64,000 bases of DNA from an uncultured bacterium (GCA_965371175.1 CBDUXI010000003.1:20493-84492), one strand, 5' to 3'. Counted from the first letter of the stretch, positions 5,214 to 49,565 are shown. Notes: generated from the sequence alone by a model not told the origin. Numbers and translations are program-made.

Positions 5214-6575
5214 CTAGTTATTGAGCCCGGCCAGGGGGGCCGGGATGCGTCCGCCACGGGCGATCAGGGCGGCGGAAGAGCCGGAATGGACCGGCATCAC
5301 CGGCGCTTCGCCCAGCAGCCCGCCAAAGCGCACCATGTCGCCCACTTTCCGGCCCGGTGCCGGGATCAGCCGCACCGCCGTGGTCTTGCGGTTGATGACG
5401 CCGATGGCGGCCTCGTCGGCAATGATGGCCGAGATGGTTTCCGGGGGCGTGTCGCCCGGCACGGCAATCATGTCCAGCCCCACGGAACAGACGGCAGTCA
5501 TGGCCTCCAGCTTGTCAATGGTCAGCGCCCCTTCCGCTGCGCGGCGGATCATGACGGCATCTTCACTGACCGGGATAAACGCGCCGGACAGCCCCCCCAC
5601 GTGGCTGGAGGCAAACGCACCGCCTTTTTTTACCGCATCGTTCAACATGGCAAGCGCCGCGGTGGAGCCGTGGGTGCCCACCTGGGCCAGCCCGATGCGC
5701 TCCAGAATTTCCCCCACGGAATCCCCCACCTTGTCGGTGGGCGCAAGGGACAAATCCAGAATACCGAACGATACCCCCAGGCGGCGGGACAGCTCCCTGC
5801 CCACAAGCTCCCCTGCGCGGGTGATCTGGAAGGCGGCTTTTTTGATGATGGAGGCCACCTCTCCCAGATCGGCGTCCTCTGCGCCGGTGAGTGCCCGGGC
5901 CACCACGCCGGGGCCGCTGATGCCCACATTAAGGCTGGTTTCCGGCTCGCCGGTACCGTGAAAGGCACCCGCCATGAACGGGTTGTCCCCCACGCAGTTG
6001 GCAAACACCACCAGCTTGGCGCAAGCGATGCCGTTTTCATCTTTGGTGCGCCGGGCCGCCTCCACAATCACCTGCCCCATGGTGGCGATCACATCCATGT
6101 TGATGCCCGCATGGGTGGAGGCCACGTTCACGCTGGCGCACACACGCCCGGTTTCGGCCAACACGGCAGGCAGGGCGGCAAGAAACGTCTCTTCTGCGCG
6201 GGTGGTGCCTTTTTCCACCAGGGCGGAAAAACCACCGATGAAATCCACCCCCACGTCTGCCGCCGCTTGGTCCATGGCCTGACCCAGCTGCACGAAGTCA
6301 TCTTCGTTTGGGTCTGCCATCAGGTTGGCCACCGGGGTGACCGCCACCCTGGCGTTGACGATGGGCACGCCGTATTCACCGGAAATTTTTTCGGCTTCGG
6401 GCTTTAAATTTTTGGCCTTGCCACGGATGCGTGCGCCCACTTTCTCTGCCACCTGGCGCGGGTCGGGACCCGCGCAATCTTGAAGGTTGAGGCCCATGGT
6501 GACCGTGCGGATATCCAGGTGGGCCTCCTGGACCATGCCGAGGGACTCAAAAATTTCCTGTATGGTCAGTGACAC
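5214..6575 (-). CDS. UPF0210 / DUF711 family protein
   Basis: Motifs [32 protein letters not shown] and GGRIPAPL match the conserved COG2848 family. About 450 aa. Confidence 0.85.
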
Positions 6576-6583
6576 GGTGGTGC

Positions 6584-6886
6584 TTATACCCGGTGCATGG
6601 CGCGGAAAATATCCTCCCGCTGCACCCGTATTTCCACCCCGATTTCCTCCCCCAGGGCAGCAAGGCGGGTGCGGATGGTATCGAACGGTGGGCTGTCCGC
6701 GCTCAGATCGGCCACCGCCACCATGGCAAACAGGTCGCCCCGAAGGACGGTCTGGGAAATATCGATCAGGTTGGCATGGGCGTCCGCCAGCACGCTGGTG
6801 ACCCGTGAGACGATGCCCACCTTGTCCACCCCCTGCACGGTGACGACGATGCGCCCCGCCGGATTGGCCGCATCTTTTTTATTCAT
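6584..6886 (-). CDS. ACT-domain protein, UPF0237 family (conserved partner of UPF0210)
   Basis: [22 protein letters not shown]...[13 protein letters not shown]. 100 aa. Sits directly upstream of the UPF0210 gene on the same strand. Confidence 0.8.
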
Positions 6887-8385
6887 GAGTCCAGCCCTTC
6901 GCGGGCCAGGGTGATGGCACGGACCATGGCCTGCGCCTTGTTTTCGGTTTCTTCAAACTCGCTGTCCGGGTCGGAGTCGGCCACGATTCCGGCCCCGGAT
7001 TGCAGGTAGGCCACGCCATTTTTGATCAGCACGGTGCGAATGTTGATGGCCATGTCGGAACTGCCGTCAAAGGCAAAATAGCCGACCGCGCCGCCGTACA
7101 GCCCGCGGGGGGACGGCTCCAGTTCTGCAATGATCTGCATGGCGCGAATCTTGGGTGCGCCCGAAAGAGTCCCCGCAGGGAAACAGGAGATCAGCACGTC
7201 GTAGGCGTCCAGCCCTGGCTTTAAGTCGCCGCCCACATGGGATACCAGGTGCATGACGTGGGAGTAGCGCTCCACCACCATAAATTCATCCACCTTTACG
7301 CTGCCGATGGTGGCCACCCGGCCCACGTCGTTGCGGCCCAGGTCGACCAGCATCAAATGTTCGGCGCACTCCTTGGGGTCGGCGGCCAACTCCTTTTCCA
7401 GGTCTTGATCGGCTTCGGCATTTTTGCCCCGTGGCCGGGTGCCTGCGATGGGACGCACGTCCACCCGCCCCCCCTGGGTACGCACCAGTATCTCTGGCGA
7501 AGCCCCCACCACATGGTGATCGTCCCGATGCAGGTAATACATATACGGCGACGGGTTTACCCGCCGCAAGGCCCGGTAAAGGTCCAGCGGGGAGCAGCCC
7601 AGATCAGTGGTGAAGCGCTGGGACAGCACCACCTGAAACACGTCGCCTGCGCGGATATATTCCTTGGCACGGGCCACCATGTCGCAATACCGCGCCCGCC
7701 CCATGTTGGAGGAGATGGTGACGGCTTTCGTTGCGGCGGCAGACGGCTCAGGCCGATCCAGCGGGGCGTTCAGCCGTTTGACGGTGTCGTCGATGGTCTG
7801 CACCGCTTCGTCGTAGGCGGCCTTCAGGTCGGTCCCGTCAGTGTGCACATTGGCGACCACCTGAATCACCTGGCGGGCGGCGTCGAACACCACCAGCCGG
7901 TCGGTAATCAAAAAGCAGAAGTCATCCAGCCCCAGGCCACAGGTTTCGGGATCGGTCAGATTGACCGGAATGTCGTCAAAAAAGCGCACCATGTCGTAGG
8001 CCACATACCCCACCGCACCACCGGCAAACGGTGGCAGCCCGTCCACCTGCACCGGGGTGAACTGCTGCATATAGGCGCGCACGGCGGTCAGCGGGTTGCC
8101 TTCGTATTCAAGCGGGGCCGACTTGCCATCGTGGGTCACGGTGACCGTCTCGCCCCGACCGGTGATGATCACCTTGGGGTCGCTCCCCAAAAATGAATAG
8201 CGCGCCCACTTCTCCCCGCCTTCCACACTTTCCAGCAGAAAACTGTTGGTGCTTGTCGCTTTCAGCTTCATGAAGGCGGACACCGGCGTATCCATGTCGG
8301 CAGTGATCTCCCGGTAGACGGGAATCAGGTTGCCGCGCTTGGCGAGCGTTTCAAACGTTTTAAAATCGGGGTGATGGGTGGCCAC
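6883..8385 (-). CDS. trpE: Anthranilate synthase component I
   Basis: 500 aa with chorismate-binding signatures (LLESVEGGEKWARYSF, GYVAYD, SPE..VR, GAVGY). No adjacent trpG. Confidence 0.9.
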   Translation of the reverse strand: MATHHPDFKTFETLAKRGNLIPVYREITADMDTPVSAFMKLKATSTNSFLLESVEGGEKWARYSFLGSDPKVIITGRGETVTVTHDGKSAPLEYEGNPLTAVRAYMQQFTPVQVDGLPPFAGGAVGYVAYDMVRFFDDIPVNLTDPETCGLGLDDFCFLITDRLVVFDAARQVIQVVANVHTDGTDLKAAYDEAVQTIDDTVKRLNAPLDRPEPSAAATKAVTISSNMGRARYCDMVARAKEYIRAGDVFQVVLSQRFTTDLGCSPLDLYRALRRVNPSPYMYYLHRDDHHVVGASPEILVRTQGGRVDVRPIAGTRPRGKNAEADQDLEKELAADPKECAEHLMLVDLGRNDVGRVATIGSVKVDEFMVVERYSHVMHLVSHVGGDLKPGLDAYDVLISCFPAGTLSGAPKIRAMQIIAELEPSPRGLYGGAVGYFAFDGSSDMAINIRTVLIKNGVAYLQSGAGIVADSDPDSEFEETENKAQAMVRAITLAREGLDS

Positions 8386-10546: not shown

Positions 10547-10636
10547 ATGGCTGCCGCTGTGAGTGCGGGCGTTGACCCCGGCGGGGGGGGGCGGATAGGC
10601 TTGTTCTTTCACCCGTTCTTATAAAGGTTGTCGTCG

Positions 10637-10879
10637 ATGCAGATTGTCGTAAACGGTGCCGCCCGCAAGGTGGCCGCAGACAGCACGGTGGCCTCACTGC
10701 TTGCCGAGCTTGAAATCCGCCCGGAAATGGTGGCGGTGGAGCACAACCGGGACATTCTGGGCCGGGAAAAATTTGCCGAGGCCCGACTGGGCGATGGCGA
10801 CACCATCGAGATTATTCAATTCGTGGGCGGCGGTGCTGCCTGCACGTATGTAAAGCAAGGAGTTCGGTTCCATGGCTGA
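10637..10879 (+). CDS. thiS: Sulfur-carrier protein ThiS with a 14-residue extension beyond the Gly-Gly terminus
   Basis: MQIVVNG...[13 protein letters not shown] follows the ThiS pattern, but the ORF continues [14 protein letters not shown] before the stop. Immediately upstream of thiG. Confidence 0.65.
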
Positions 10880-11651
10880 CGAACTGGTTATTGGCGGCAT
10901 TACTTTCCGCTCCCGCCTGTGGGTGGGCACCGGCAAATACCGGGATTTCGATGAGACCCGTGAGGCCATCGAAGCCTCCGGTGCCGATGTGGTGACCGTG
11001 GCGGTACGGCGGGTGAACGTGACTGATCCGAACCAGGAAAACCTGCTGGATTACCTGGATCCTAAGGTATACAAAATTCTGCCCAACACCGCTGGCTGTT
11101 ACACGGCGGAAGAGGCCATTCGCACCGCCAGACTGGCCCGCGCCGCCGGCGTGTCCGACATGGTGAAGCTGGAGGTGATTGGCGACGAAAAAACCTTGTT
11201 CCCGGATAACGAAGCCACTCTGGAAGCGGCGGAAGTGCTGGTCAAGGAAGGGTTCATCGTGTTGCCGTACATGACGGACGATCCGATCATGGCCAGAAAG
11301 TTTGAGGATGTGGGCTGCGCCGCCGTCATGCCGCTGGCCGCGCCCATTGGTTCGGGGCTGGGTGTCTGCAACCCGTACACGATTGAAATCATCAAGCGCC
11401 ATGCAAATGTGCCGGTGATTGTGGATGCGGGGGTGGGTACCGCTTCCGACGTGGCCGTGGCCATGGAGCTGGGGGTGGATGCGGTGTTGCTCAATACCGC
11501 TATTGCCGGGGCCAAAGATCCCATTCGCATGGCCCGCGCCATGCGCCATGGGGTGATGGCAGGCCGGGAGGCGTATCTTGCCGGGCGTATCGAAAAAAAG
11601 CTGTACGCCACCGCCAGTTCGCCCCTGAAAGGTATGATTGCCTCCGCCTGA
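10872..11651 (+). CDS. thiG: Thiazole synthase
   Basis: [21 protein letters not shown]. Full-length match to ThiG. Confidence 0.9.
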
Positions 11652-12318
11652 CAGGCAAGTCATACGCTCCCTCGTGAAGGATAGCGCCACACAACTGTCC
11701 CCCCTGTATCTGATTACCGACCGCGCTCAGGTGCCCGGAGGCGACCTGAACGGCTGCCTTGCCGCGGCGCTGGCCGCTGGGGTGCGGCTGGTGCAACTAC
11801 GCGAAAAAGACCTGTCTGTGCGCGATCTACTGGCGCTGGCTAAGGCAGTGCGTGCCCTCACCCAAAAATTTGGCGCAAAATTGCTGATCAACAGCCGTGC
11901 CGATGTGGCGCTTGCCGTGGGTGCCGACGGGGTGCACCTGCCCAGTCACAATCCGCCGGTGGACGACATGCGAAAAATGCTGGGCGAGCACGCCCTGATC
12001 GGCGTGTCCACCCATAGCGCTTTCGAGGTGGAGGCGGCCCAAACCTCCGGGGCCGATTTCGTGACGTTCGGCCCGATATTCGATACGCCCTCCAAACGGG
12101 GCATGGGCAGCCCCACCGGAGTGGATGCGCTAAAAAAAGTGGTTGGGCACACCGTGCCGGTATTTGCCCTGGGCGGTATCCACCTGCCCCAGCTGCCTGC
12201 GGTGATGGACAGCGGCTGCCACGGGGTGGCGATGATTTCGGAATTGATGGCTGCCGCCAACCCGGAACAGGCTGCCCGCGCCCTTGTGGCGGCCATCGGT
12301 TCGGGCGAAAATTTGTAA
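11638..12318 (+). CDS. thiE: Thiamine-phosphate synthase
   Basis: LYLITDR plus TIM-barrel TMP-synthase motifs (GADGVHL, GVSTHS, FGPIF). Start overlaps the end of thiG. Confidence 0.8.
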
Positions 12319-12456
12319 CTGCATGAAAAATAACAAATTACCAATCTGAGGCCATTTGACCGATTTCCAACTGCCTCGTATGCTTGAATCTGGTGGTGGT
12401 ATCACCGATAAGAGATATGGGGAGTGGTTTTTCCGCTTGGGGTGGGAGGAGGTTTG

Positions 12457-14199
12457 ATGGCCAATTCACGACCCGGAAAAGGTGGCGCAGGCAGCGAGCA
12501 CACCGTCAGGGACAGCGGTGCCAAGGGCGGCGCGGTCGATTACGAGCGGGAAATCCAGAAGCTGCGGCTTCAGTTGCAGTCCATGGAGTCGGAACTCAGG
12601 CACCTGTTCCCGGTGCGTAACCAGCTCGATCAGGCCTACACCCAGAATCAGAAGCTCGCCAGCGTACTGGAGGAATCCCGCGCCCGGATCGAGGCGTTGC
12701 GGGAAGAGGTGGAAAAGCTCTCCCTGCCCCCCAATCCGTACGGATTTTTCTCCTCCATCAACGACGACGACGGCACCATCAACATCTATGTGTCGGGTCG
12801 CAAGATGAAGGTGCACGTGCACCCGGAAATTGATGTGAACAGCATGCAGCTGGGTCAGGAACTGGTGCTCAACGAGGCGTTTAACGTGGTGGAGGTCAAA
12901 GGCTTCCAGGTGCAGGGCGAGGTGGTGTACGTCAAGGAAGTGCTGGACGACGACCGGGCCATTGTTTCCTTGCGCGCAGATGAAGAGCGGGTGGTGCGCT
13001 TTAGCGAGCGGCTCAAAGCCGAGCACCTGCGGGTGGGCGACCATGTGCTGCTGGACACCCGCTCCGGCTATCTGCTGGAAAAGCTGCCCAAGTGCGAGGC
13101 CGAAGAACTGGTCATCGAGGAAGTGCCCGACGTGGATTACACCCGCATCGGCGGGCTGCGGGATCAGATCGAAGAGATCAAGGACGCGGTGGAGTTGCCG
13201 TTTTTGCACCCGGAACTGTTTCGCGAACATAAGCTTTTGCCCCCCAAGGGGATTTTGCTGTACGGCCCTCCGGGGTGCGGCAAGACCCTGATCGCAAAGG
13301 CTGTGGCCAACGCCATCGCCCAGAAGGTGAGCTCCCAGCCGGATAAGGAGCGGCGCAGCTTCTTCTTGCACATCAAGGGGCCGGAACTGCTGAACAAATA
13401 TGTGGGCGAGTCGGAACGCAAGATCCGCGAGATTTTCCAGAAGGCCAAGGAAAAAGCCGACCGGGGCGTGCCGGTGATCATCTTCTTTGACGAGATGGAC
13501 TCCCTGTTCCGTACCCGTGGTGCGGGTATTTCCTCGGACATGGAATCGACCATCGTGCCCCAGTTTCTGGCCGAAATCGACGGGGTGGAGCGCCTGCGCA
13601 ACGTGATTGTCATTGGTGCCACCAATCGGCAGGATTTGATCGACCCGGCTGTGCTGCGCCCCGGACGGCTGGATATCAAAATCCGGGTGGACCGTCCGGA
13701 CCGGGACGGCGCACGGGATATTTTTCTGAAATATCTCACCACCGATCTGCCGATTCACGCGGGTGCCCGGATCAAAAAAGGGGAAAAACCGGAAAGTGTG
13801 GTGGCCCGCATGATCGATCAGGTGGTGGACGACATGTATGCCGATACCGAGGAAAACGAGTTTCTGGAGGTGACCTACGCCAACGGCGAGCGGGAAGTTT
13901 GCTACTTTAAGGATTTTGCCTCCGGCGCGATGATCGAAGGCATTGTGGCCCGAGCCAAAAAATACGCCATCAAGCGCGCCATCGAAACCGGCGAAAAAGG
14001 GATCAAGGTGGACGATCTGCTCGCGGCCATGCGGCAGGAGTATCGGGAAAACGAGGACCTACCCAACAACACCAACCCGGACGACTGGGCCAAGATTGCC
14101 GGTAAAAAGGGCGAGCGGATCGTCAACATCCGCACCATTATCGACCACGCTCAGAACGGCAAGGAAATCACCCCCGTCTCGGCCGGGCACTACCTCTAG
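12457..14199 (+). CDS. mpa: Proteasome-associated AAA+ ATPase (ARC/Mpa)
   Basis: N-terminal coiled coil, an inter-domain region, one AAA module ([15 protein letters not shown]), and a C-terminus ...GHYL comparable to the actinobacterial GQYL. Start at 12457 has GGAGG at -11. Confidence 0.88.
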
Positions 14200-14233
14200 G
14201 GTTGCCGCCCTAAGGCGCGTGGAAATTTAGATC

Positions 14234-15718
14234 ATGTCTGTTCGCCCCTTTTTTTTTGGCAGTGAAACCGAGTTCGGTATTTCCTGTCTGGACCCGCGCG
14301 AACAGAATCACATTACCAATTCATTGAGGCTGGTCAGCTTTCTGCCCAACCCGGCATCTCCCGATTGCCTGTGGGATTACGAGGGGGAAAACCCTCTCCT
14401 TGATCTGTTCGGCAACCGCATGGACGGGGAGCGGGAAGACCCGGACCCGTATGCCAACCGGTCCCTCAACAAACCGCTGGCCAACGGCGGGCGGCTGTAT
14501 GTGGACGGGGCGCACCCGGAATATTCATCCCCCGAGGTGACCGATCCGCTGGATCTGGTGCGCTACGAGAGCGCAGGCGAGCAGATTGCCGATGCCTGCC
14601 GCAAAAACGCCGACCGGGCGCTGGGGCAGGCCCATTTCTGCCTGCACAAGAACAACTCGGACGGCAAGGGCAACAGCTACGGCTATCACGAAAATTACCT
14701 GGTCCCCAAATCCGTGTCGGTACACGCTCTGATGGAGGCGATCATTCCGTTCTTGATTACCCGCCAGATATTCTGCGGCGCAGGCAAGGTGGGCACCGAG
14801 AACGGGCGGGAAAAAACCCACTATCAACTCTCGCAGCGGGCCGACTTTTTTGAAACCCTGGCCGAACTCAACACCATGGTTAGAAGGCCGTTGTTCAACA
14901 CCCGCAACGAACCCCACGCCGATCCCAAAGAATGGCTGCGCCTGCACGTGATTCCGGCGGATTCCAACATGAGCCAGGTGTCCACCTTCCTGAAAGTGGG
15001 TACCCTGGCCCTGGTGCTGCGTCTGGTGGAAGAAGGGGCGCTGGAAAATGTGCCCCGGATCAAAAAACCGGTGGCGTCGTTCGGGGCGATTTCGCACGAT
15101 CTGACCATCAAAAAACCGGTGGCGATGGACAACGCCGCCCCCATGACCGCAGTGGAGATTCAGCGAATTTATCTGGAGGCGGCAAAAAAATATGCGGACC
15201 AGAATCCGCTGCCCGGCAGCTTTCCGCAAGTGCTTGTGCGCTGGGAGGAATCACTGGATGCTCTGGAGGTCGATCCGTTCGGGCTGTCCCGCACGGCCGA
15301 CTGGGCCATCAAATACCGCATGATTGATACTTATCTGGCGGCGAAAGGGCTGGACTGGAGCGCAGCGCAGGCCAAGGCCATGGACCTTCAGTATCACGAC
15401 ATCAATCCCGAAAAGGGGTTGTACCACACCGTGCGTGCGCGGGGTATGGTGGAGGAACTGGTGACACAGGAGGAAATTTCCGCCGCCATGAGTACGCCGC
15501 CGGAAGATACCCGGGCATGGTTCCGGGGGACGTGTCTTGCCCGGTTTGGCAAAGCGGTTTACGGTGTTAGCTGGGGGTCGGTGCTATTGCATACGGGGGA
15601 GAAGGTGAGTCGCATCCCCACCCTGAACCCGTTTCGGGGGACCAAGGCCATCGCCGGACCTCTTTTGGACAGTTGCTCCACACCGGAGGAACTGATCGAT
15701 AAACTGGAGCAGGGATGA
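14234..15718 (+). CDS. dop: Pup deamidase/depupylase Dop (glutamine-synthetase-like PafA/Dop family)
   Basis: 494 aa. GSETEFG N-terminal motif of the PafA/Dop family. Longer than the downstream paralogue, consistent with the Dop-loop insertion. Position between mpa and pup matches actinobacterial synteny. Confidence 0.75.
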   Translation: MSVRPFFFGSETEFGISCLDPREQNHITNSLRLVSFLPNPASPDCLWDYEGENPLLDLFGNRMDGEREDPDPYANRSLNKPLANGGRLYVDGAHPEYSSPEVTDPLDLVRYESAGEQIADACRKNADRALGQAHFCLHKNNSDGKGNSYGYHENYLVPKSVSVHALMEAIIPFLITRQIFCGAGKVGTENGREKTHYQLSQRADFFETLAELNTMVRRPLFNTRNEPHADPKEWLRLHVIPADSNMSQVSTFLKVGTLALVLRLVEEGALENVPRIKKPVASFGAISHDLTIKKPVAMDNAAPMTAVEIQRIYLEAAKKYADQNPLPGSFPQVLVRWEESLDALEVDPFGLSRTADWAIKYRMIDTYLAAKGLDWSAAQAKAMDLQYHDINPEKGLYHTVRARGMVEELVTQEEISAAMSTPPEDTRAWFRGTCLARFGKAVYGVSWGSVLLHTGEKVSRIPTLNPFRGTKAIAGPLLDSCSTPEELIDKLEQG

Positions 15719-15734
15719 ACAGAGCAGGTAGTCA

Positions 15735-15929
15735 ATGAGCCAGAAGAAAAAAACATCCAGCAAACCGCAGGAAAAAGAGACAGATAAAGAGAGCGCCAAG
15801 GCCTCCGTCACCGAAAAGGGGGAGGAACTTGCCGAGGACATGGACAAACTCATCGATGAGATTGATGATGTGCTCGAAAAGAACGCCGAAGAGTTTGTCA
15901 AAAACTATGTGCAGAAGGGGGGCCAGTGA
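15735..15929 (+). CDS. pup: Prokaryotic ubiquitin-like protein Pup
   Basis: 64 aa, highly acidic and low-complexity. C-terminus ...EEFVKNYVQKGGQ matches the Pup consensus. The stop overlaps the prcB GTG start. Confidence 0.85.
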   Translation: MSQKKKTSSKPQEKETDKESAKASVTEKGEELAEDMDKLIDEIDDVLEKNAEEFVKNYVQKGGQ

Positions 15930-16711
15930 GCCACAACCCGTTCGGTCCCGCACTCGGTTCCAGCTTTTACGATTATCTGGTCGCGGAGCGCCCCGACCTG
16001 CTGCCGATGGCGCGGGTCAGCGCAGGGGATACCGGCACCCTGCCGGTAAACCACGGCACCACGGTGCTGGCCATGACCTATGCCGACGGGGTGGTCGTGG
16101 CCGGTGATCGCATGGCCTCGGACGGCATGTCGGTTTCCAGCCGCCGCATGGACAAGGTGATTGCCGTCGATAATTATTCGGCGGTGGCCATTTCCGGCGC
16201 TGTGGGTCCATGCCTCGAAATGGCCAAGCTGTTTCTGACCGAGCTGGAATATTACGAAAAAATCGAGGGCCGGTCTCTATCTCTGGCGGGCAAGGCCAAC
16301 AAACTGGGGCAGATGGTGCGCGGCAACCTGCCACTGGCCATGCAGGGGCTGGCGGTGATCCCCCTGTTTGCCGGATACGACCTGGAGCGTACCTGCGGCC
16401 GGGTGTTCAAATACGATGCGGCGGGTGGCCGCAACGAAGAGCCGGATTTTGTCACCACCGGCTCCGGTGGCGGACACGCACGGGGGGCGCTCAAAAAAAG
16501 TTTTCAGGAACAGTTGTCCGAGGCGGATGCCGTCAAGGTGGCGCTGGACGCCCTGTTTGACGCGGCGGAAGAAGATCTGGCCACGGCAGGCCCCGATCCG
16601 ATCCGGGGGATTTATCCTTCGGTGCTGGTCATCGACCGGGACGGTATCCGTAACTTGCCCGATGATGACGTGGCGGCCCACTTTCAGGGCGGCCCCAAGG
16701 GGAAACGGTAG
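15926..16711 (+). CDS. prcB: 20S proteasome beta subunit with propeptide
   Basis: Propeptide followed by HG|TTVLAMTY, placing the catalytic Thr1 after autoprocessing. Ntn-hydrolase fold. Confidence 0.88.
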   Translation: MSHNPFGPALGSSFYDYLVAERPDLLPMARVSAGDTGTLPVNHGTTVLAMTYADGVVVAGDRMASDGMSVSSRRMDKVIAVDNYSAVAISGAVGPCLEMAKLFLTELEYYEKIEGRSLSLAGKANKLGQMVRGNLPLAMQGLAVIPLFAGYDLERTCGRVFKYDAAGGRNEEPDFVTTGSGGGHARGALKKSFQEQLSEADAVKVALDALFDAAEEDLATAGPDPIRGIYPSVLVIDRDGIRNLPDDDVAAHFQGGPKGKR

Positions 16712-16713
16712 CC

Positions 16714-17397
16714 ATGTCTGCACCGTACTACGTCTCTCCCGAACAGCTCATGCGCGACAAGGCGGAGTTCGCCAAGGCGGGCATTGCCCGCGGGCGCGCC
16801 ATCGTGGTCATGCGGACGCAGGAGGGCGTCCTGTTTGTGGCCCACAATCCGGGGGTGTCCCTGTACAAGATATCGGAAGTCTACGACCGCATCGGCTTTG
16901 CCGGAGCGGGCAGGTACAGCGAGTTTGAGGCATTAAGGAAAGCCGGGGTGCGCCATGCGGATGTGACCGGCTACAGCTATAGCCGGGAGGACGTGACGGC
17001 CAAATCGCTGGCCAACGGCTATTCCCAGATGCTGGGGGATGCTTTCGCCCGGGAAATAAAGCCCATGGAAGTGGAGCTTGTGGTGGCCGAAGTGTCCGCA
17101 GCCCCTGAAGATGATGAGATCTATCGCATCTCCTTCGACGGTTCCATCTCCGGTGAGGGCCACTTCAGCGTGGTGGGCGGGGATGCCGACCGGGTGCTGG
17201 GGGCACTGTCCAAACAACACAGCCAAGTGGCAGAGATGGGGCCGTCCCTGATCCAGTGCAAAACCGCACTGGAGGCCGGGGGGGAAGATAACCTGACCGC
17301 CGCAGACCTGGAGGTGGGACTGATTGAACGGGGCCGGGCTGGCCGCGCCTTCCGCAGGCTCGATAGCGCAGAGGTTATCGCTCTGCTTTCGGGGTAA
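16714..17397 (+). CDS. prcA: 20S proteasome alpha subunit
   Basis: 227 aa. Proteasome alpha-type sequence (YVSPEQLMRDKAEFA...). Immediately follows prcB. Confidence 0.85.
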   Translation: MSAPYYVSPEQLMRDKAEFAKAGIARGRAIVVMRTQEGVLFVAHNPGVSLYKISEVYDRIGFAGAGRYSEFEALRKAGVRHADVTGYSYSREDVTAKSLANGYSQMLGDAFAREIKPMEVELVVAEVSAAPEDDEIYRISFDGSISGEGHFSVVGGDADRVLGALSKQHSQVAEMGPSLIQCKTALEAGGEDNLTAADLEVGLIERGRAGRAFRRLDSAEVIALLSG

Positions 17398-17402
17398 CCG
17401 CC

Positions 17403-18776
17403 GTGCGCCGCCGAATTCTGGGATTGGAAACGGAATTTGGCCTGACTTTTTTCCCCAGCGGAAAATCGTACCTGCCGATGGAAAAAGTCATCGGCTATCT
17501 GTTTGAAGAAGTCATCCCCACCGGCTGGCCGTCCAATGCCTTTCTGGTCAACGGCGCCCGGTTTTATCAGGACACCGGCTGCCATCCGGAATATGCCACC
17601 CCGGAGTGCGCCACGGTCAAGAGCGTGGTGGCCCACGACAAGGCGGGAGAGCGGCTGCTGGAGTCGCGTCTGGCTCCGGCCCAGGCCCGGCTGGCCGAAG
17701 AGGGGTTTGTGGGCACCCTGTACGCCTATAAAAACAACACCGATACCATGGGCAACACCTACGGCTGCCACGAAAATTATCTGGTGGACCGCAAGCTCGA
17801 TTTCTGGCGGCTGGCGGAGCATATGATTCCGTATTTTGTCACCCGCCAGATGTATACCGGCGCGGGCAAGGTATACAAGGCGGCGGGCCAGAGTGGCTTT
17901 GCCATTTCCCAGCGGGCCGTCCATATTCACGAGGCATCCTCCTCCTCCACCACCAGCTCGCGCAGCATCATCAACACCCGGGACGAGCCCCACGCCGACG
18001 CGGAGCGGTTCCGGCGGCTGCACATCATTGCGGGCGACTCCAACATGAGCGAGTACACCACCTACCTGAAAATGGGCATCACCAGCGTGCTGCTCACCGC
18101 CATGGAGGAGGGGGCCATGTTTCCCATCCTCACGCTGGACGATCCGGTGGATGCCCTGCGCCAGGTTTCTGTGGACCTGCGGATGAAACAGCCGCTACTG
18201 CTTGCCAGCGGCGGAAAGATGACCGCTCTGGAGATACAGTGGGCCTACCTGGAGGCGGCGGAGCGGCATTTTTCCACTTTGGAAAAAGGGGTGTTCCGCA
18301 ACCTGCTGACCCAGTGGCGGGAAGTACTGGATGCGCTGGAGACCAATCCGAAACAGCTGGCCGACCGGGTGGACTGGATCGCCAAGCGGGAGTTGATGCG
18401 CGCCTTCATGCGGCGGGACGGGTGCGACTGGTCCGACCCGCGCATTGCCATGATTGATTTGCAATACCACGATATCGACCGCAGCCGGGGGCTGTACTAC
18501 CTGCTGGAGCGGGACAAAAAAATGGTGCGGGTGGTTGCCGAGTCCGAGGTGACCCGCGCCCTTCACCACCCCCCTGCCGACACCCGCGCCCACATCCGCG
18601 GGCAGTTTATCCGCTTTGCCAAGGAGGCGGGCCGCCCGTACAGCGTGGACTGGACCTACCTGAAGCTGTCCGGTTATTTCGAGGAGACAATCCTCTGCAC
18701 CGACCCGTTTGTCAGCCGCGACCCACGGGTGGAAGAGCTGGTCACCACCGCCACCGGTGATTTGTACGATATTTAA
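17403..18776 (+). CDS. pafA: Pup--protein ligase PafA
   Basis: 457 aa. LGLETEFG motif. Paralogue of the dop product but shorter (no Dop loop). GTG start. Confidence 0.78.
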   Translation: MRRRILGLETEFGLTFFPSGKSYLPMEKVIGYLFEEVIPTGWPSNAFLVNGARFYQDTGCHPEYATPECATVKSVVAHDKAGERLLESRLAPAQARLAEEGFVGTLYAYKNNTDTMGNTYGCHENYLVDRKLDFWRLAEHMIPYFVTRQMYTGAGKVYKAAGQSGFAISQRAVHIHEASSSSTTSSRSIINTRDEPHADAERFRRLHIIAGDSNMSEYTTYLKMGITSVLLTAMEEGAMFPILTLDDPVDALRQVSVDLRMKQPLLLASGGKMTALEIQWAYLEAAERHFSTLEKGVFRNLLTQWREVLDALETNPKQLADRVDWIAKRELMRAFMRRDGCDWSDPRIAMIDLQYHDIDRSRGLYYLLERDKKMVRVVAESEVTRALHHPPADTRAHIRGQFIRFAKEAGRPYSVDWTYLKLSGYFEETILCTDPFVSRDPRVEELVTTATGDLYDI

Positions 18777-18816: not shown

Positions 18817-19257
18817 TTAATAAATCCCCGCGTCCCGTTGCAGCTTGCGCACATAGGCGATGATGTCCGTCATGTCGGACGTGTTCACGCCACCCACTTT
18901 GGGCATGTTGCCAAATTTCCAGTGGTGGGCCCGCACCCCGGTGGCGGCGGCCCGGTAAAAGGCCTCGTTCGGGTGGTGGTTCGGTTCGTAAATCTTGTGG
19001 ACCAGCGACGGTCCTTTATCGGAACCCGCGGCGGCACTGCCGTGGCAACGGGCGCAGTTTTTGTTAAACAGGGTTTCGCCCATTGCCACCTGCTCGTCGC
19101 CGGTTACCGGCTTGCCCTGCGCCACGCCAGGGGGCGGCGCGTCCGACTTGTTGCAGGCGGAAAGGGCGAACAGCGACCCCAGTGCCACAGCCAGAAACAG
19201 GGTCCGCCATTTTGGCCTTTGTGGTGTGTCCGGTTGATATGCCTTGTGTGCCCACAT
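18817..19257 (-). CDS. Cytochrome c lipoprotein (class I, monohaem)
   Basis: Signal peptide with lipobox LSAC. One CxxCH motif (CARCHG). Confidence 0.6.
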   Translation of the reverse strand: MWAHKAYQPDTPQRPKWRTLFLAVALGSLFALSACNKSDAPPPGVAQGKPVTGDEQVAMGETLFNKNCARCHGSAAAGSDKGPSLVHKIYEPNHHPNEAFYRAAATGVRAHHWKFGNMPKVGGVNTSDMTDIIAYVRKLQRDAGIY

Positions 19258-22585: not shown

Positions 22586-23020
22586 CTACCAGGTGACCCG
22601 TAACACCTCTCGCAGGTCGCTGCGCCCGGCGATATCTTTGGCCCGGAAGTAGCCCATCCCTCCGGGGGTGCGGGTGATATATTCCAGGCCTTCCTGCAGG
22701 GAGGTTACGTTTTTCGGGGGGGTGCCGCCTTCCCGGAAGATGCGTTTGATCCAGTAGATCTTGAAGTCCCGCTCGGACATGCCCAGTACCCGGCGCAAAA
22801 AATCGCTCTGTATGGAGGTGCCTTCGGGAAATCCGGTTGGCGCGATTTTCACTTCGCCCCAGAAAGTCAGGGTGCCCAGATAAATTTGCTTTACCTCATC
22901 GGTCGAAAGGGCGCTCGTCGGTGCCTGGGCGTTGACCACCATGACGATTTCCCCCGCCCATGAACTGGCCGCTCCCGCAAGGAAAAACACCGCGGCCCAC
23001 GCACAAATAATTGTTCGCAT
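22586..23020 (-). CDS. Periplasmic PBP-like (phosphate-binding-like) protein
   Basis: Signal peptide (MRTIICAWAAVFFLAGAASSWA). Short PBP-superfamily-like domain. Downstream of the porin O/P gene. Confidence 0.4.
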   Translation of the reverse strand: MRTIICAWAAVFFLAGAASSWAGEIVMVVNAQAPTSALSTDEVKQIYLGTLTFWGEVKIAPTGFPEGTSIQSDFLRRVLGMSERDFKIYWIKRIFREGGTPPKNVTSLQEGLEYITRTPGGMGYFRAKDIAGRSDLREVLRVTW

Positions 23021-23071
23021 GCGTAAAGCCCGCCTACAGAAACTGCCCATTTGGTGCATCTCCTCAGCCAT

Positions 23072-24178
23072 TTAAAACGAGAAGGCCCATTGTGCGGCGG
23101 CTTCGTTGTAGCTGCCGTCGAAATCATCGTCGATGGCGCGGTACTCGGCTTTGAGTGCGGTGCGATAGTCGATGTCGAAGCGTATGCCAACCACGGTTAC
23201 GGTGGTTTCCCGGTCGACTGCCGGGGTGGTGACGCCGATGGCATCGAAATACGGGTCACTTTCCGCGTCCAGCGTGCTGTAGCGTACATATGGCATGACC
23301 TGCTCTTTGACCCGGTAGCCCAACTGGGTGTACCAGCCCACGGTATCCGTGCTGACGCTCGCCAGATTTTCATGTTGCCAGGCGTAGTATTCGCCCAGGA
23401 ACTCCACCCGGTCCGACAGGTAGGCCACATCCACCCCCCAGATGATCTGATCGATTTCGTCGTCCAGCGGGCCGCCCGTATCGGTGATCAGCACGGTGCC
23501 TGTCTGCCCGAACAGGCCGACTTGCAGGCCTTCCAGGGCGGCGGGGCTGAACGACAGGTTGGCGGAAACGGCCTTTTGGTTATCCGGGTCGCTGCCGCTG
23601 CCGGGGTCGAGTTCCAGCAACTCGGGTGTGACGCTCAGATCTCCGGAGAGCGCTGCGCCGTTGCCGAACATCACCCCCAACCTCACGTTGCCTGCGTCGG
23701 TGGAAAACCGGCTGTCCCACCACAGACCGACCATGTGCATCGGCAGGACCCCGTGCTCATCCTCGAATTCAAGGAAAAACGGTCGGCCGATCGTGGTATG
23801 CAGCTGGGCGCCGTGGTGGTAGGCCAGGTTCCAGTAGCCCAGCAGGTTATGAAAGCGCCCGGCCCGCACCTTGTGGTGGTTGTTCAGGGCGTAGCTGATT
23901 TGCAGCCGTTCCAGATCGGTGATGGCCTCCCCGTCGTCCAGTTCGGTGACCAGTTCCGCCAGCATGTCCATGCGGTCGCTGAGCTGCTCGGCGACGTAGA
24001 AATCCAGATGCCCCAGAGAAAATCCGTTGTTGCTGCCGCCAGTGGCCCCACCCATTTCGGTGGCTGTATAGGAGACGTCGGCAAAGCCGTTCAACTCAAA
24101 GGCGTGGGCTGTGCCCGGGCCCGTCAGCCAGAAAACGAACGCGGCAGCCAGTATCCAGGCTGTACTCGGTCTGTTCAT
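23072..24178 (-). CDS. Outer-membrane porin, phosphate-selective porin O/P family
   Basis: Signal peptide, Gly- and aromatic-rich beta-strand pattern, and a C-terminal ...WAFSF outer-membrane sorting signal. Confidence 0.65.
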   Translation of the reverse strand: MNRPSTAWILAAAFVFWLTGPGTAHAFELNGFADVSYTATEMGGATGGSNNGFSLGHLDFYVAEQLSDRMDMLAELVTELDDGEAITDLERLQISYALNNHHKVRAGRFHNLLGYWNLAYHHGAQLHTTIGRPFFLEFEDEHGVLPMHMVGLWWDSRFSTDAGNVRLGVMFGNGAALSGDLSVTPELLELDPGSGSDPDNQKAVSANLSFSPAALEGLQVGLFGQTGTVLITDTGGPLDDEIDQIIWGVDVAYLSDRVEFLGEYYAWQHENLASVSTDTVGWYTQLGYRVKEQVMPYVRYSTLDAESDPYFDAIGVTTPAVDRETTVTVVGIRFDIDYRTALKAEYRAIDDDFDGSYNEAAAQWAFSF

Positions 24179-24791: not shown

Positions 24792-25871
24792 TTAGCCTGG
24801 CTGGGGGACGGGTTGGTCCGTTGCAGACAGACGCGCAAGGATTTCCCTCGTCATCTCTTCCATGGATACCTGTATGGCCCCCGCGTCCGCGCTCGCCTCC
24901 GGCATCTGACAGACCAGACAGTCATCCGGCGTCTGGGTGAGTACGACCCCTCCCTGTCCAATCAGCGCACGGGTGCCCGCTACGCCGTCTTCCCCCATGC
25001 CGGACAGGACCACGCCGATGCCGTCTGCGGGGCAGGCTGCGGCCAGGCTGTGTAACAGCCCGTCGGCCGACGGGCTGGCGGCCGGGTTGTCCGCATCGGC
25101 CATGTAGACGGTTAAACCCGCCGCCTCTTGTTTGACCTCAATGTTTTTTCCACCCTGCCCCACCAGCACGGTGCCAGGGGTGAGGCGCTCTTCCTGCCCG
25201 GCCTCCCTGACGGGGAGCGCACACACGGCATTCAGCCGTTCTGCAAGCAGGCTGGTATACGCTTCCGGCAACGTTTGCGCCACCACCACCGCGGCCTCCA
25301 GGTTTTCGGGCAGCGAGGCCACCAGGCGCATCAGGGTATATGGGCCGCCCGCGCCCGCGCACAGCCCGATCACCTTCATTCCGTTGCTGTTGCCGTTGCC
25401 GTTTGGCGTATGGGGAGGTGGTGTCGGCGCGGAATCCATGAGCATGGAAATCAACGCTTTACGGGTTGCCCCGCCTCCCACGGCGCGGACTTTTTCGATT
25501 AATCTCGGCGCCAGCTTACGCATGGCTAGGGAACTACCCGATTTGGTCTTGGGCAGGTAACCGACCACGCCTTCCGCAAAGGCGGCAAGCACGTCCGTGC
25601 CCCCTTGATGGTTTGGCGTACCCAGGCCAATGACCGGAGTGGGGAACAGTTTCATCAGTTCACGCAGCATGTTGGCGCACGCCCCATCGGGCACTTCCAG
25701 ATCCATGATAATCACATCTGGTGTCAGGTTGCGGGTCATGTGCAGTCCCTGGTCGGGCTCCGTCGCCTGCCCCGTTATTTCGATATCGGGCGCACCGGCC
25801 AACATCTGGACGATGGCGGTGCGTACAACGGCGTTGGCATCCACAATCAGGACACGTATTGGTTTGGCCAT
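24792..25871 (-). CDS. cheB: Chemotaxis response regulator, protein-glutamate methylesterase
   Basis: N-terminal REC domain (IRVLIVDANAVVR...IIMDLEVP) and a C-terminal CheB methylesterase domain. Confidence 0.85.
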   Translation of the reverse strand: MAKPIRVLIVDANAVVRTAIVQMLAGAPDIEITGQATEPDQGLHMTRNLTPDVIIMDLEVPDGACANMLRELMKLFPTPVIGLGTPNHQGGTDVLAAFAEGVVGYLPKTKSGSSLAMRKLAPRLIEKVRAVGGGATRKALISMLMDSAPTPPPHTPNGNGNSNGMKVIGLCAGAGGPYTLMRLVASLPENLEAAVVVAQTLPEAYTSLLAERLNAVCALPVREAGQEERLTPGTVLVGQGGKNIEVKQEAAGLTVYMADADNPAASPSADGLLHSLAAACPADGIGVVLSGMGEDGVAGTRALIGQGGVVLTQTPDDCLVCQMPEASADAGAIQVSMEEMTREILARLSATDQPVPQPG

Positions 25872-25899: not shown

Positions 25900-26742
25900 T
25901 TAGCGCTCGCCCACGGCGTATCGGCGGGCATTTTTTGCCCCCTCTTTTTTGGCGCGTTGTTCGGCCTGCTTGCGCGAGTCGGTCCGCTTTCTGCGGATAT
26001 GGGCAATTTTGCCCTTGATGCGCAGCACCGCCTGAGAGTGCAACTGGGATACCCGTGATTCGGTAATGCCCAATATGCTGCCGATTTCGCGCATGGTCAG
26101 TTCTTCGTAGTAGTAGAGGGTAATGACCAGCCGCTCTTTTTTGGGCAACTGCTCAATGGCCTCTCCCAGCAGATTCCACATGTCCTGCTGAATCAGGTCG
26201 GAAAGCGGGTCCGGTGTGGAGTCCTGGGACAGGCACTCCAGAATATTGACCTCCCGGTTGGTGTCCACGCCCAGGTCGTCCAGACTCAGTACCGCTGTAT
26301 GGGACACCTGCTGCAAGGTTTTGTGCAGGGTTGCAAGGGGGATGTCCATTTCGGTGGCGACTTCTTCTTCGCTGGCAGGGCGTCCCAGCTTTTGCTCCAG
26401 TTTCTGATAGACACCGCGCAGCTTGGAGGCCTTTTCCCGAATGCTCCGGGGCACCCAGTCCATGGCGCGCACTTCGTCCAGCATGGCGCCGCGGATGCGA
26501 AATTCGGCATAGGTCTTAAAGAGTGTTTCCCGGTTCGGGTCGTACTTGGTCATGGCGTCCATGAGCCCGATGACCCCTACGTTAATGATGTCGTCCACAT
26601 CCAGGTGCGCCGGAAGGCGCGAGGCCAGCCGGTTGGCCATGATGCGAATTTTGGGTGCGAACTCCTCGATCAGGCGTTCCTGCACTTCCAAAGTAATGTG
26701 TTTGACACCCACACCGTAATCCTGCTTTGCAGCTTTTGCCAC
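25900..26742 (-). CDS. fliA: FliA/WhiG-family RNA polymerase sigma factor (sigma-28-like)
   Basis: Sigma-70 regions 2 and 4 (LTMREIGSILGITESRVSQLHSQAV) typical of FliA. Has an unusual roughly 35-aa basic C-terminal tail. Confidence 0.7.
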   Translation of the reverse strand: MAKAAKQDYGVGVKHITLEVQERLIEEFAPKIRIMANRLASRLPAHLDVDDIINVGVIGLMDAMTKYDPNRETLFKTYAEFRIRGAMLDEVRAMDWVPRSIREKASKLRGVYQKLEQKLGRPASEEEVATEMDIPLATLHKTLQQVSHTAVLSLDDLGVDTNREVNILECLSQDSTPDPLSDLIQQDMWNLLGEAIEQLPKKERLVITLYYYEELTMREIGSILGITESRVSQLHSQAVLRIKGKIAHIRRKRTDSRKQAEQRAKKEGAKNARRYAVGER

Positions 26743-27120: not shown

Positions 27121-28311
27121 GAGGCTTGCCTGTCTTTAACAAGGGAGTACCGGTTGTCTACACCCACACCCACCCACCCGGATGTATTGATTCTGGGGGG
27201 GGGCATCATCGGCATGCTTACCGCTGTGGAACTTGCCCGCAAGGGGGTGCAGGTGACGGTGCTGGAGCGGGGCCGGCCCATGCGCGAGTCGTCCTGGGCC
27301 GGTGCCGGCATCCTGTCGCCCATCTATCCGTGGAAGTATCCGGACGCCTTGAGCATTCTGGTCAACCGCAGCCTGGCGCTTTATCCGCAGATGATGGAGC
27401 GCTTGCAGGCCCTCTCCGGGGTGGACCCGGAGCACCGCAAAACCGGGCTGATCATGCCCGTGTTCCGGTCTTCGGAATGGTTTTCCATGGACGGGGTGGA
27501 CCCGTGGCGCCGCAGGTTTGGCTGGCAGGTGGAGCGGCTGACGGGATCTGAGGCCCGGCAGGTGGAGCCGTGCCTGGCGAAGAAGGTGGTGGGTGCGCTG
27601 TATTTTCCAGAAGTGGGTCAGGTGAGAAATCCGCGCCTTGCCCGCGCTGTGGAGGCCACGGCCCGCGTGCTGGGGGTGGATATTCGCTACGGGGAAGAGG
27701 TGATTGACCTGTCTGTAAAGGGCGGGCGGGTGTCCACCGTGACCACCAACAACGGCAAACTTCGGGCCGACAAGGTGTTGGTTGCCGCCGGTAGCTGGAG
27801 TGGAGAATTACTTAAAAAAGCGGGTTATACGCTGCCGATCCAGCCGGTGAAAGGGCAGATTCTGTTGCTCAAAACCGCTCCCGGCACCCTGACCCGCATC
27901 GTCAAGCATGCAGACGCCTATCTGGTGCCCCGCGCCGATGGGCGCATTTTAGTGGGGGCCACCATGGAGATGGCCGGATTTGACCGGCGCACCACCCTGT
28001 CGGCCCTGTACACCCTTTCCGGGGCACTGTTGACCATGGCGCCGTGCCTTGCCGACGCACAGGTGGAGCAGCACTGGATGGGGTTTCGTCCGGGCACTCC
28101 GGACGGGTTGCCGTATCTGGGGCAGGTGCCGGGTTACGACAACCTGTATGTGGCCGCAGGTCACTATCGGAATGGGGTGGTGCTGGCTCCGGTGACCGCC
28201 GAGGCCATGAGTTGCCTGCTCACCGACGATGCGCTAACGGTGCCGCTGGGGGCGTTTGCCGTGCAGCGGGAAGTTCAGGCGTCGGCAGAGGTCGGGCTGC
28301 CGACTCCCTAG
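27121..28311 (+). CDS. thiO: Glycine oxidase (FAD-dependent)
   Basis: [14 protein letters not shown]-binding motif and DAO-family length. The open frame extends upstream to 27046, so the true start is uncertain. Confidence 0.72.
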
Positions 28312-30701: not shown

Positions 30702-30725
30702 GGTATGTAGTAACTCCTTGTTTGG

Positions 30726-43114: not shown

Positions 43115-43484
43115 TTCTTCATTCTACACCCGGCCGACCGTTCTACATTTGGCTATTGCGGACCCGTGGGTTTCCCCGGACAGGGCAACGAATTTCCCAC
43201 CTTGGGGTGGGGCAGGGGATGCATCACCGAACCGCTTTGCCCCAGCCCCGGCATCGAATCGTAAAAAAACAATATAAAACAATGTATTAACCGCATCGTC
43301 AAAAAAATGACAAAGCGGCACGGGGCTTGCTACATACCCTCCCTGGTAACACGTTTGTTTGTGGACCCATTCTGTCCGGGCAACCCGTTCGCGAGGACGG
43401 CACGCAAAGGATACGGGTCTCCACCCGATTGGGGGAGGAGACGGCTGACCTGCCAGTTAAGTCCGCGCTGTTGGAGTTGTATCC

Positions 43485-49550: not shown

Positions 49551-49565
49551 AGGGAGAGTAAGTAA

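Follow-up and report, generated by a model that had tools for sequence, protein, structure and literature searches.

The stretch of DNA analysed here, called the window below, is 64,000 nucleotides long and comes from an uncultured bacterium (GCA_965371175.1 CBDUXI010000003.1:20493-84492). On its plus strand, positions 12457-18776 hold six co-directional and tightly packed genes in the order mpa/arc, dop, pup, prcB, prcA and pafA. Taken 5' to 3', mpa and dop are separated by 34 nt and dop and pup by 16 nt, pup and prcB overlap by 4 nt, and prcB-prcA and prcA-pafA are 2 and 5 nt apart, in agreement with an earlier sequence-only reading of this DNA, which had called the junctions overlapping or near-touching. 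The features of the locus are as follows.

12355..12385, plus strand: candidate sigma-70-like promoter, TTGACC-17 nt-TATGCT, in the 138-nt thiE-mpa spacer (consensus scan and conservation)
12457..14199, plus strand: mpa/arc, proteasome-associated AAA+ ATPase, 580 aa (TIGR03689, Pfam and 7px9 matches)
14234..15718, plus strand: dop, Pup deamidase/depupylase, 494 aa (TIGR03688 and 5lrt matches)
15735..15929, plus strand: pup, prokaryotic ubiquitin-like protein, 64 aa, C-terminus ...NYVQKGGQ (TIGR03687 and Pfam Pup)
15926..16711, plus strand: prcB, 20S proteasome beta subunit with a 44-aa propeptide (TIGR03690, alignment to 1q5q_H and 2fhg_H)
16714..17397, plus strand: prcA, 20S proteasome alpha subunit, 227 aa (TIGR03691, 1q5q_A and 3h6f_A matches)
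17403..18776, plus strand: pafA, Pup-protein ligase, 457 aa, GTG start (TIGR03686 and 4b0t matches)

The family-model scores of the six products are far beyond chance. Mpa scores 744.8 bits with the NCBIfam model TIGR03689 pup_AAA (cutoff 504.75) and 639 bits when aligned to 7px9, the Mpa of M. tuberculosis. Its Pfam domains are an AAA domain and two proteasomal-ATPase OB domains, Prot_ATP_ID_OB_N and Prot_ATP_ID_OB_C, and alignment to residues 52-95 of the M. tuberculosis protein locates a putative N-terminal coiled-coil region. Walker A (GPPGCGKT, 270), the pore loop (KYVGE, 314) and Walker B (FFDEMD, 343) are all in place. The protein ends in ...AGHYL, so that Tyr is penultimate in a GHYL tail; the mycobacterial tail is GQYL. 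As the start of mpa, the ATG at 12457 is favoured over the GTG at 12424, because the AGGAGG lying 5' of it is conserved and ATGGCCA is kept in relatives. For the 20S core, PrcB scores 282.6 bits with TIGR03690 20S_bact_beta (NCBIfam cutoff 191.9) and 206 bits against PrcB of the Mycobacterium tuberculosis / Rhodococcus system. Its residue 45 aligns with residue 1 of mature PrcB from Rhodococcus (1q5q_H) and M. tuberculosis (2fhg_H), the cleavage motif HG|TT is retained, and the mature chain carries Thr1, Asp17 and Lys33. PrcA is covered over its whole length by TIGR03691 20S_bact_alpha (283 bits, NCBIfam cutoff 139.05), and its alignments to 1q5q_A of Rhodococcus and 3h6f_A of M. tuberculosis reach 215 and 205 bits. 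The Pfam Proteasome family is also matched by products of the operon.

The tagging components can be recognised in the same way. Pup scores 65.6 bits with TIGR03687 (NCBIfam cutoff 41.45) and 79.8 bits with Pfam Pup; its residues 17-64 align with M. tuberculosis Pup (7px9_G), and the last seven residues, YVQKGGQ, are identical. Dop and PafA both match Pfam Pup_ligase PF03136, at 512 bits for Dop and 494 bits for PafA. With the finer models, Dop scores 486.3 bits on TIGR03688, 6 bits under the cutoff of 492.3, against 355.3 for the PafA model, and PafA scores 534 bits on TIGR03686, 17 bits under the cutoff of 551.3, against 394.6 for the Dop model. Such sub-cutoff scores would fit divergence from model seeds that are mainly actinobacterial. 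Dop matches Acidothermus Dop (5lrt) at 438 bits over residues 8-491 of 494; the Dop-specific loop is present at residues of about 45-80, corresponding to about 45-85 in the 5lrt chain, and is lacking from PafA. Asp91 of Dop, in LYVDGAHPEY, aligns with Acel Asp94. PafA matches Corynebacterium PafA (4b0t) at 329 bits, with an alignment that begins at residue 2; it has the N-terminal motif RRILGLETEFG, and its Asp57 aligns with C. glutamicum Asp64 (D57 in M. tuberculosis). Because of the 4b0t alignment, a public PafA gene call of 432 aa (P0001, 100% identity) is judged to start 25 codons late. The two products fit the ligase (PafA) and deamidase/depupylase (Dop) families and both have the active-site Asp, and the corresponding activities are predicted for them. 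For every component, namely Pup, PafA, Dop, Mpa/ARC and the 20S core, family models, structure matches and key residues agree with the assignment, and the full Mpa-Dop-Pup-PrcB-PrcA-PafA annotation given in the sequence-only reading is upheld.

How are the six genes transcribed? The consensus scan matched the spacer at 12356-12384 with 9 of 12 positions. The window shares a block TTTGACC..N17..TATGCTT with its Nitrospirota relatives L002 and L004 and, in part, with L005, in a thiE-mpa spacer that has otherwise diverged. We take this conserved block as the candidate promoter of the spacer. Transcription of the six genes probably starts at this promoter of their own, and the operon ends ahead of the convergently oriented cytochrome c gene. 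No convincing intrinsic terminator was found 3' of pafA: all 13 matches of the terminator scan lie inside genes.

By homology to the mycobacterial system, a working scheme can be proposed for the products. Pup would be synthesised with a C-terminal Gln (GGQ), which Dop would deamidate to give GGE. PafA, using ATP, would then phosphorylate the gamma-carboxylate of Pup and join Pup to the lysine side chains of targets. The coiled coils of the Mpa hexamer would bind Pup, and Mpa would unfold the substrate with ATP and thread the chain through its pore loops, while its C-terminal tail (GHYL here) would dock on the PrcA ring. PrcB would autocleave its 44-residue propeptide, exposing the Thr1 sites at which the chain would be degraded. 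Dop may also take Pup off targets, which would make the tagging reversible.

One alternative accepts the genes as annotated, but holds that pupylation serves mainly non-degradative regulation, or that most substrates reach the 20S core by routes independent of Pup. It has a precedent in actinobacteria that lack the proteasome and have kept pupylation (PMC3511204). However, mpa, prcB and prcA share a tightly packed cluster here with pup, dop and pafA, and conservation is joint: mpa-dop-prcB-prcA-pafA occur in the same order and span in 60 of the 61 Nitrospirota species loci whose upstream DNA is long enough. Mpa moreover keeps the coiled-coil and OB region and the Tyr-containing tail, and PrcB keeps its catalytic residues. 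We therefore regard this alternative as improbable, and degradation of Pup-tagged proteins as the preferred reading.

There is a further question of concern, namely which bacterium carries this operon. The sequence-only reading had suggested a diderm host, possibly proteobacterial, from a set of surrounding genes, of which the following were identified in the window.

24792-25871, minus strand: CheB
25900-26742, minus strand: sigma-70 family factor
40616-43114, minus strand: CopA-type P-type ATPase
46567-50543, plus strand: LeuS-LptE-HolA
50938-52533, plus strand: MurJ

LptE and MurJ bear out the diderm host. Among the named neighbours, CheB, the sigma-70 family factor, the CopA-type ATPase, LptE and MurJ stand, but the proposed OprO/P porin does not, for the ORF at 23072-24178 on the minus strand has no Pfam match at E<=0.01. 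A Pfam scan of the ORFs of this window found no pafBC, as had been noted before, and no bpa/pafE or PAC2-like gene. The Rfam scan of the window found no rRNA gene, only a tRNA-Met and a marginal c-di-GMP-I match. Protein relatives point to another phylum than Proteobacteria. When GTDB species genomes are ranked by PafA, the top 80 loci all belong to Nitrospirota, and the closest named relatives of PafA and of the unlinked housekeeping protein LeuS are Nitrospirota MAGs, at 71-80% identity. For LeuS, encoded 28 kb away, the top named matches are Leptospirillia/Nitrospirota MAGs at 71-73%, and the next is at 58%. In five Nitrospirota MAGs (L001-L005) the six genes have an identical order and both flanks are collinear with the window, with trpE, bcp and thiSGE upstream and cytochrome c, BFN nuclease, RidA, birA and coaX downstream. 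Identities to these five, the nearest relatives by sequence, are 74-80% for PafA, 78-79% for Mpa, 65-68% for Dop, 70-74% for PrcB and 67-70% for PrcA. A proteobacterial host is thus ruled out by the relatives of PafA and LeuS and by synteny. The host clade lies within Nitrospirota; where it falls inside the phylum is judged from protein similarity and from NCBI MAG labels that disagree, reading Leptospirillia, Nitrospirales or Nitrospirota.

Was the operon then transferred from Actinobacteria into a proteobacterial or otherwise atypical Gram-negative host? The system is best known from Actinobacteria, the window carries diderm markers such as LptE and MurJ, and published work infers that the ancestor of Nitrospirae received the system from Actinobacteria in ancient times (PMC7947786, PMC3511204). 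Against such a transfer, the nearest relatives of both PafA and LeuS are in Nitrospirota, the flanks are syntenic on both sides in the five MAGs, and the cluster with its thiGE neighbour is conserved throughout the phylum. The operon also resembles the rest of the window in composition: local GC is 0.58-0.62, the same as in the flanks, and the RSCU distance between operon and remainder is 0.048, with a null of 0.046 +/- 0.008 (p = 0.39). Recent horizontal transfer is ruled out by GC, codon usage and phylum-wide conservation, and the earlier statements that local GC matches the flanks and that any acquisition would be old hold good. Any transfer dates from the root of the phylum or close to it, which is already published, and the transfer into an atypical host is very improbable. 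Just as hard to credit is a chimeric or mis-binned metagenomic assembly joining a Pup-proteasome segment to unrelated diderm DNA, since PafA and LeuS, 28 kb apart, each have a 100% identical match on a public contig of one and the same length, 86,512 bp, the gene neighbourhood on both sides recurs in the independent assemblies L001-L005, and composition is uniform along the window. In its favour stands that exact-sequence look-ups of PafA, of the 432-aa public PafA call (P0001) and of LeuS (P0124) gave no recorded gene. Thus the locus is, with high confidence, a canonical and vertically inherited Pup-proteasome operon in an uncultured diderm Nitrospirota bacterium.

The same operon had been considered unusual in its context and rare outside Actinobacteria. 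This does not hold for the host phylum, where it is near-universal in the sampled loci (60/61). Conservation of Pup-proteasome systems in both Actinobacteria and Nitrospirae has been described (De Mot 2007, Trends Microbiol; Iyer et al. 2008, PMC2588565; Barandun et al. 2012, PMC3511204; PMC7947786), and the Nitrospirae operon has been in the literature since 2007-2008 (De Mot 2007; Iyer 2008, PMC2588565). The sequence-only reading had itself set in advance, as the case that would count against it, a lineage in which the operon is standard, and Nitrospirota is such a lineage. Because the host belongs to Nitrospirota and the operon is standard there, the novelty is removed and the annotation is kept. 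The find is correct but ordinary, and the operon was already known in the phylum.

The distribution across the phylum gives some further detail. The span of the cluster has a median of 6223 bp across Nitrospirota loci, compared with 6320 here, and thiG-thiE lie directly upstream, as in the window, in 54 of the 57 loci long enough to show it. The ThiS ORFs of the phylum have tails beyond the GG end. PafA of the window is only about 56-62% identical to that of the Nitrospiria, Manganitrophaceae, Troglogloeales and Nitrospira loci. Some 52 Nitrospiraceae/Nitrospirales loci have dop adjoining prcB, and tblastn together with a six-frame motif search found no pup within +/-10 kb. The idea that pup is missing from Nitrospira genomes was dropped, as these assemblies do contain Pup homologues at other sites; in these lineages pup lies between an H+-pyrophosphatase gene (hppA) and recJ-relA (L081, L083, L084). 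Where pup is linked to the cluster (n=25), Pup ends in GGE in 20 of the loci; that of the window ends in GGQ.

Compared with the system of Mycobacterium tuberculosis and Rhodococcus, the window shares all six components, their domain architecture and catalytic residues, and the core order dop-pup-prcB-prcA. It differs in its diderm Nitrospirota host and in having the six genes contiguous within 6.3 kb, with pafA right after prcA. In M. tuberculosis, pafA lies apart from prcA and is followed by pafBC. The 44-aa PrcB propeptide, the GHYL tail of Mpa and the sub-cutoff scores of Dop and PafA are further differences. The clusters of Leptospirillum and other Nitrospirae (De Mot 2007; PMC2588565; PMC3511204) belong to the same phylum and Gram-negative host type and have the same compact, actinomycete-like form, but the window represents a separate uncultured lineage. 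With the Nitrospira/Nitrospiraceae cluster it shares the five enzyme and protease genes, their order and the upstream thiSGE; unlike that cluster, it retains pup inside the operon.

What does the finding mean for the phylum? It confirms that an intact Pup-proteasome system is present, as expected for the phylum, in an uncultured Nitrospirota lineage, and beyond annotation it has little importance; one public gene call, the start of pafA, is corrected. There is mild comparative value in that pup lies in the operon here, versus its relocated position in Nitrospira proper, which could inform evolution after the ancient Actinobacteria-Nitrospirota transfer. A more specific scenario may be offered tentatively, with the odds somewhat against it: the lineage of the window would be a deep clade (PafA about 60% identical to Nitrospiria) that keeps an actinobacterial-like six-gene operon with a Gln-ended Pup, while in Nitrospiraceae pup moved to the hppA-recJ-relA region and the thiSGE-mpa linkage is conserved phylum-wide. 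If this is true and unreported, the acquisition would predate the split of these Nitrospirota classes, and the transcription of pup would have been uncoupled from the rest of the system, in a lineage-specific manner, in nitrite oxidisers.

Six ORFs, all on the + strand, occupy 12457-18776 in the ORF list of the window. Their NCBIfam assignments are as follows.

12457-14199, + strand: mpa/arc, TIGR03689, 744.8 bits (cutoff 504.75)
14234-15718, + strand: dop, TIGR03688, 486.3 bits (cutoff 492.3)
15735-15929, + strand: pup, TIGR03687, 65.6 bits (cutoff 41.45)
15926-16711, + strand: prcB, TIGR03690, 282.6 bits (cutoff 191.9)
16714-17397, + strand: prcA, TIGR03691, 283 bits (cutoff 139.05)
17403-18776, + strand: pafA, TIGR03686, 534 bits (cutoff 551.3)

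Gaps of 34 nt and 16 nt separate mpa from dop and dop from pup, the pup stop overlaps the prcB GTG start by 4 nt, and prcA follows prcB after 2 nt and pafA follows prcA after 5 nt. Both Dop and PafA narrowly miss their equivalog cutoffs, and each is clearly scored higher by its own model than by that of its paralogue (486 versus 355 bits for Dop, 534 versus 395 bits for PafA). Pfam agrees with the assignments of all six products, and each matches a solved actinobacterial counterpart: Mpa matches M. tuberculosis 7px9 (639 bits), Dop Acidothermus 5lrt (438 bits, covering residues 8-491), PafA Corynebacterium 4b0t (329 bits, with the alignment starting at residue 2), PrcB Rhodococcus 2h6j (206 bits) and PrcA Rhodococcus 1q5q (215 bits). 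Residues 17-64 of Pup align with M. tuberculosis Pup, and the YVQKGGQ end is identical in both. NCBIfam, Pfam and the structure matches thus confirm what the sequence-only reading had correctly recognised, that the predicted genes are a complete six-gene Pup-proteasome operon.

The key residues are all preserved. By alignment, PafA Asp57 is the counterpart of C. glutamicum Asp64 and Dop Asp91 that of Acidothermus Asp94, and a Dop-specific loop is found in the second ORF (dop) and not in the sixth (pafA). The PrcB propeptide has 44 residues and ends with HG before TT; Thr45 aligns with mature Thr1, and Asp17 and Lys33 are also there. The motifs of Mpa are GPPGCGKT (Walker A), FFDEMD (Walker B) and KYVGE (pore loop), and the protein ends in AGHYL; the docking motif of mycobacterial Mpa is GQYL. 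How would the system work? The C-terminal residue of the window Pup is Gln, and the need for Dop deamidation of a Gln-ended Pup is established in the mycobacterial system, so deamidation would be required here before ligation. The whole mechanism is drawn by homology: Dop would convert Pup-GGQ to Pup-GGE, PafA would activate the gamma-carboxylate with ATP and ligate it to substrate lysines, the Mpa coiled coils would bind Pup, Mpa would then unfold and translocate the substrate, and PrcAB would degrade it. Dop would also take Pup off, making the tag reversible. A mainly non-degradative role is disfavoured, since the mpa-prcBA genes are intact and co-conserved.

A promoter-consensus scan found a TTGACC-17-TATGCT match within the 138-nt thiE-mpa spacer. 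When this spacer was aligned between the window and the three closest relatives having it, two conserved blocks stood amid diverged sequence, TTTGACC..N17..TATGCTT and AGGAGG followed by ATGGCCA. These blocks support a dedicated candidate promoter for the operon, and they favour the mpa start read earlier, ATG 12457, over GTG 12424. At the other end, the terminator scan gave no convincing intrinsic terminator downstream of pafA, and a convergent cytochrome c gene (18817-19257, - strand) lies 40 nt beyond the pafA end. The public PafA gene call P0001 (432 aa, 100% identical) is 25 codons too short according to the alignment to 4b0t. It starts 25 codons downstream of GTG 17403 and leaves out window 17403-17477; the conserved N-terminal RRILGLETEFG, which aligns from residue 9 of C. 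glutamicum PafA, is thereby lost.

To which lineage does the host belong? After the identical P0001, the protein search gave PafA relatives at 73-81% identity and then at about 58-62%, and the named matches are all Nitrospirota (Nitrospiria, Manganitrophaceae, Troglogloeales, Nitrospira). PafA relatives are encoded by 579 of 599 pattern matches in species-representative genomes. The 80 best loci are all from Nitrospirota MAGs or genomes (80/80), and the five closest, L001-L005 (74-80% identity), are labelled Nitrospirales, Nitrospirota, Leptospirillia, Nitrospirae and Nitrospira sp. The same was seen with a housekeeping gene that is independent of the operon and lies 28 kb from it, LeuS (46567-49047). 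It has one 100% match, on a public contig equal in length (86,512 bp) to the one that carries P0001, and then matches at 67-73% identity, where the named ones are Leptospirillia or Nitrospirota; identity next falls to 58%, a level at which phyla are mixed. When the window genes were compared with the fetched loci by local tblastn, both operon flanks proved collinear with L001-L005, with trpE, bcp, two unassigned ORFs and thiS-thiG-thiE in common upstream, and cytochrome c, a small ORF, a bifunctional nuclease, a RidA-like gene, birA, coaX and two more ORFs downstream. Together, the PafA and LeuS relatives and the collinear flanks identify the predicted host as a Nitrospirota bacterium and no proteobacterium. 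The sequence-only reading had proposed a diderm host, in agreement with the presence of LptE and MurJ, and its suggestion of a possibly proteobacterial one is contradicted by these relatives and the synteny.

Gene order was counted in the 61 Nitrospirota species loci whose sequence reaches 6.4 kb or more beyond pafA on the upstream side. In 60 of them mpa, dop, prcB, prcA and pafA are collinear on one strand, and the cluster has a median span of 6223 bp (range 6048-6622; 6320 bp in the window). Apart from pup, which is short and rich in Lys and Glu, the operon genes have GC and GC3 values within the range seen in 39 other genes of the window. The codon-usage comparison proposed earlier shows no departure from the rest of the window (RSCU distance 0.048; resampling null 0.046 +/- 0.008, p = 0.39). 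Recent horizontal transfer of the operon into a proteobacterium is disfavoured by the Nitrospirota relatives of PafA and LeuS, the flank synteny, the phylum-wide cluster and this ordinary codon usage. A chimeric contig is disfavoured by the same relatives and synteny, the cluster conservation and the uniformity of codon usage.

Immediately upstream of mpa lies thiS-thiG-thiE (10628-12318, + strand), and thiG-thiE is in the same place in 54 of the 57 loci having at least 7.8 kb upstream. The linkage joins a ubiquitin-fold sulfur-carrier pathway to the Pup-proteasome cluster across the phylum. Inherited synteny is the probable reason for it, as mpa is preceded by a conserved promoter-like element of its own. 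ThiS normally ends in FVGGG; the window thiS ORF (10628-10879, + strand) runs 14 aa beyond this end, into the start of thiG. In most Nitrospirota ThiS ORFs GGG is followed by a tail of variable length (1-55 aa), and ThiS is fused in frame to ThiG in four loci (L016, L018, L025, L037). Since ThiS chemistry requires a free GG carboxylate, the tails imply C-terminal processing or an unusual arrangement.

Among the 77 loci having prcB, pup stands between dop and prcB in only 25. Pup ends in GGE in 20 of these and in GGQ in 5, including L002, L003 and L005, which are among the closest relatives of the window. About 52 Nitrospira, Nitrospiraceae and Nitrospirales loci (L020, L026-L080) have no Pup-like ORF within +/-10 kb of the cluster; there dop adjoins prcB in the order mpa-dop-prcB-prcA-pafA (e.g. 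L057, 8256-8279; L044). Has pup been lost in those lineages? Loss was rejected, because pup is present elsewhere in the genome: in Nitrospira sp. YTPLAS18 and Nitrospiraceae assemblies it has an H+-pyrophosphatase gene on one side and recJ-relA on the other (L081, L083 and L084, each at 8001-8204). The clearest case is isolate NOB01, where a single assembly has both the cluster lacking pup (L044) and pup at its other site (L084). In the window's clade, in Manganitrophaceae and in Troglogloeales, pup remains part of the operon.

Elsewhere in the window, a sucrose cluster (28308-33853, - strand) encodes a sucrose synthase of 797 aa, an SPS/SPP fusion of 724 aa and a PfkB-family sugar kinase (fructokinase), which suggests that sucrose is used for storage or as a compatible solute. 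A candidate c-di-GMP-I riboswitch (43369-43457, + strand) in the copA-terB gap scores 35.6 bits in Rfam, against a gathering score of 35, and all + strand ORFs between it and terB are shorter than 50 aa. The OprO/P porin named earlier is not borne out: the 368-aa ORF within 22586-24178 (- strand) that may correspond to it gives no Pfam match at E<=0.01. The sole match of the neighbouring 161-aa ORF is a sub-threshold PBP_like_2 (22 bits), and L001, L003 and L004 have counterparts of the two ORFs. A 718-aa protein (2232-4388, - strand) matches the STAND NTPase (nSTAND1) and TPR families weakly, and none of the fetched Nitrospirota loci has a homologue; its gene, beside conserved core genes, is possibly a variable or defence-type one.

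Is the operon new to this phylum? Iyer et al. 2008 listed nitrospirae among the non-actinobacterial lineages with proteasome-linked Pup (PMC2588565), and later work, including Barandun et al. 2012 (PMC3511204) and PMC7947786, describes the system as conserved in both Actinobacteria and Nitrospirae. A complete Pup-proteasome operon is the rule in Nitrospirota and already published. The sequence-only reading had held that placement in a lineage where the operon is standard would remove its novelty and leave the annotation; the 60/61 loci and this literature bear that out on both counts. The finding thus has little significance beyond annotation, the operon being already known from the phylum.
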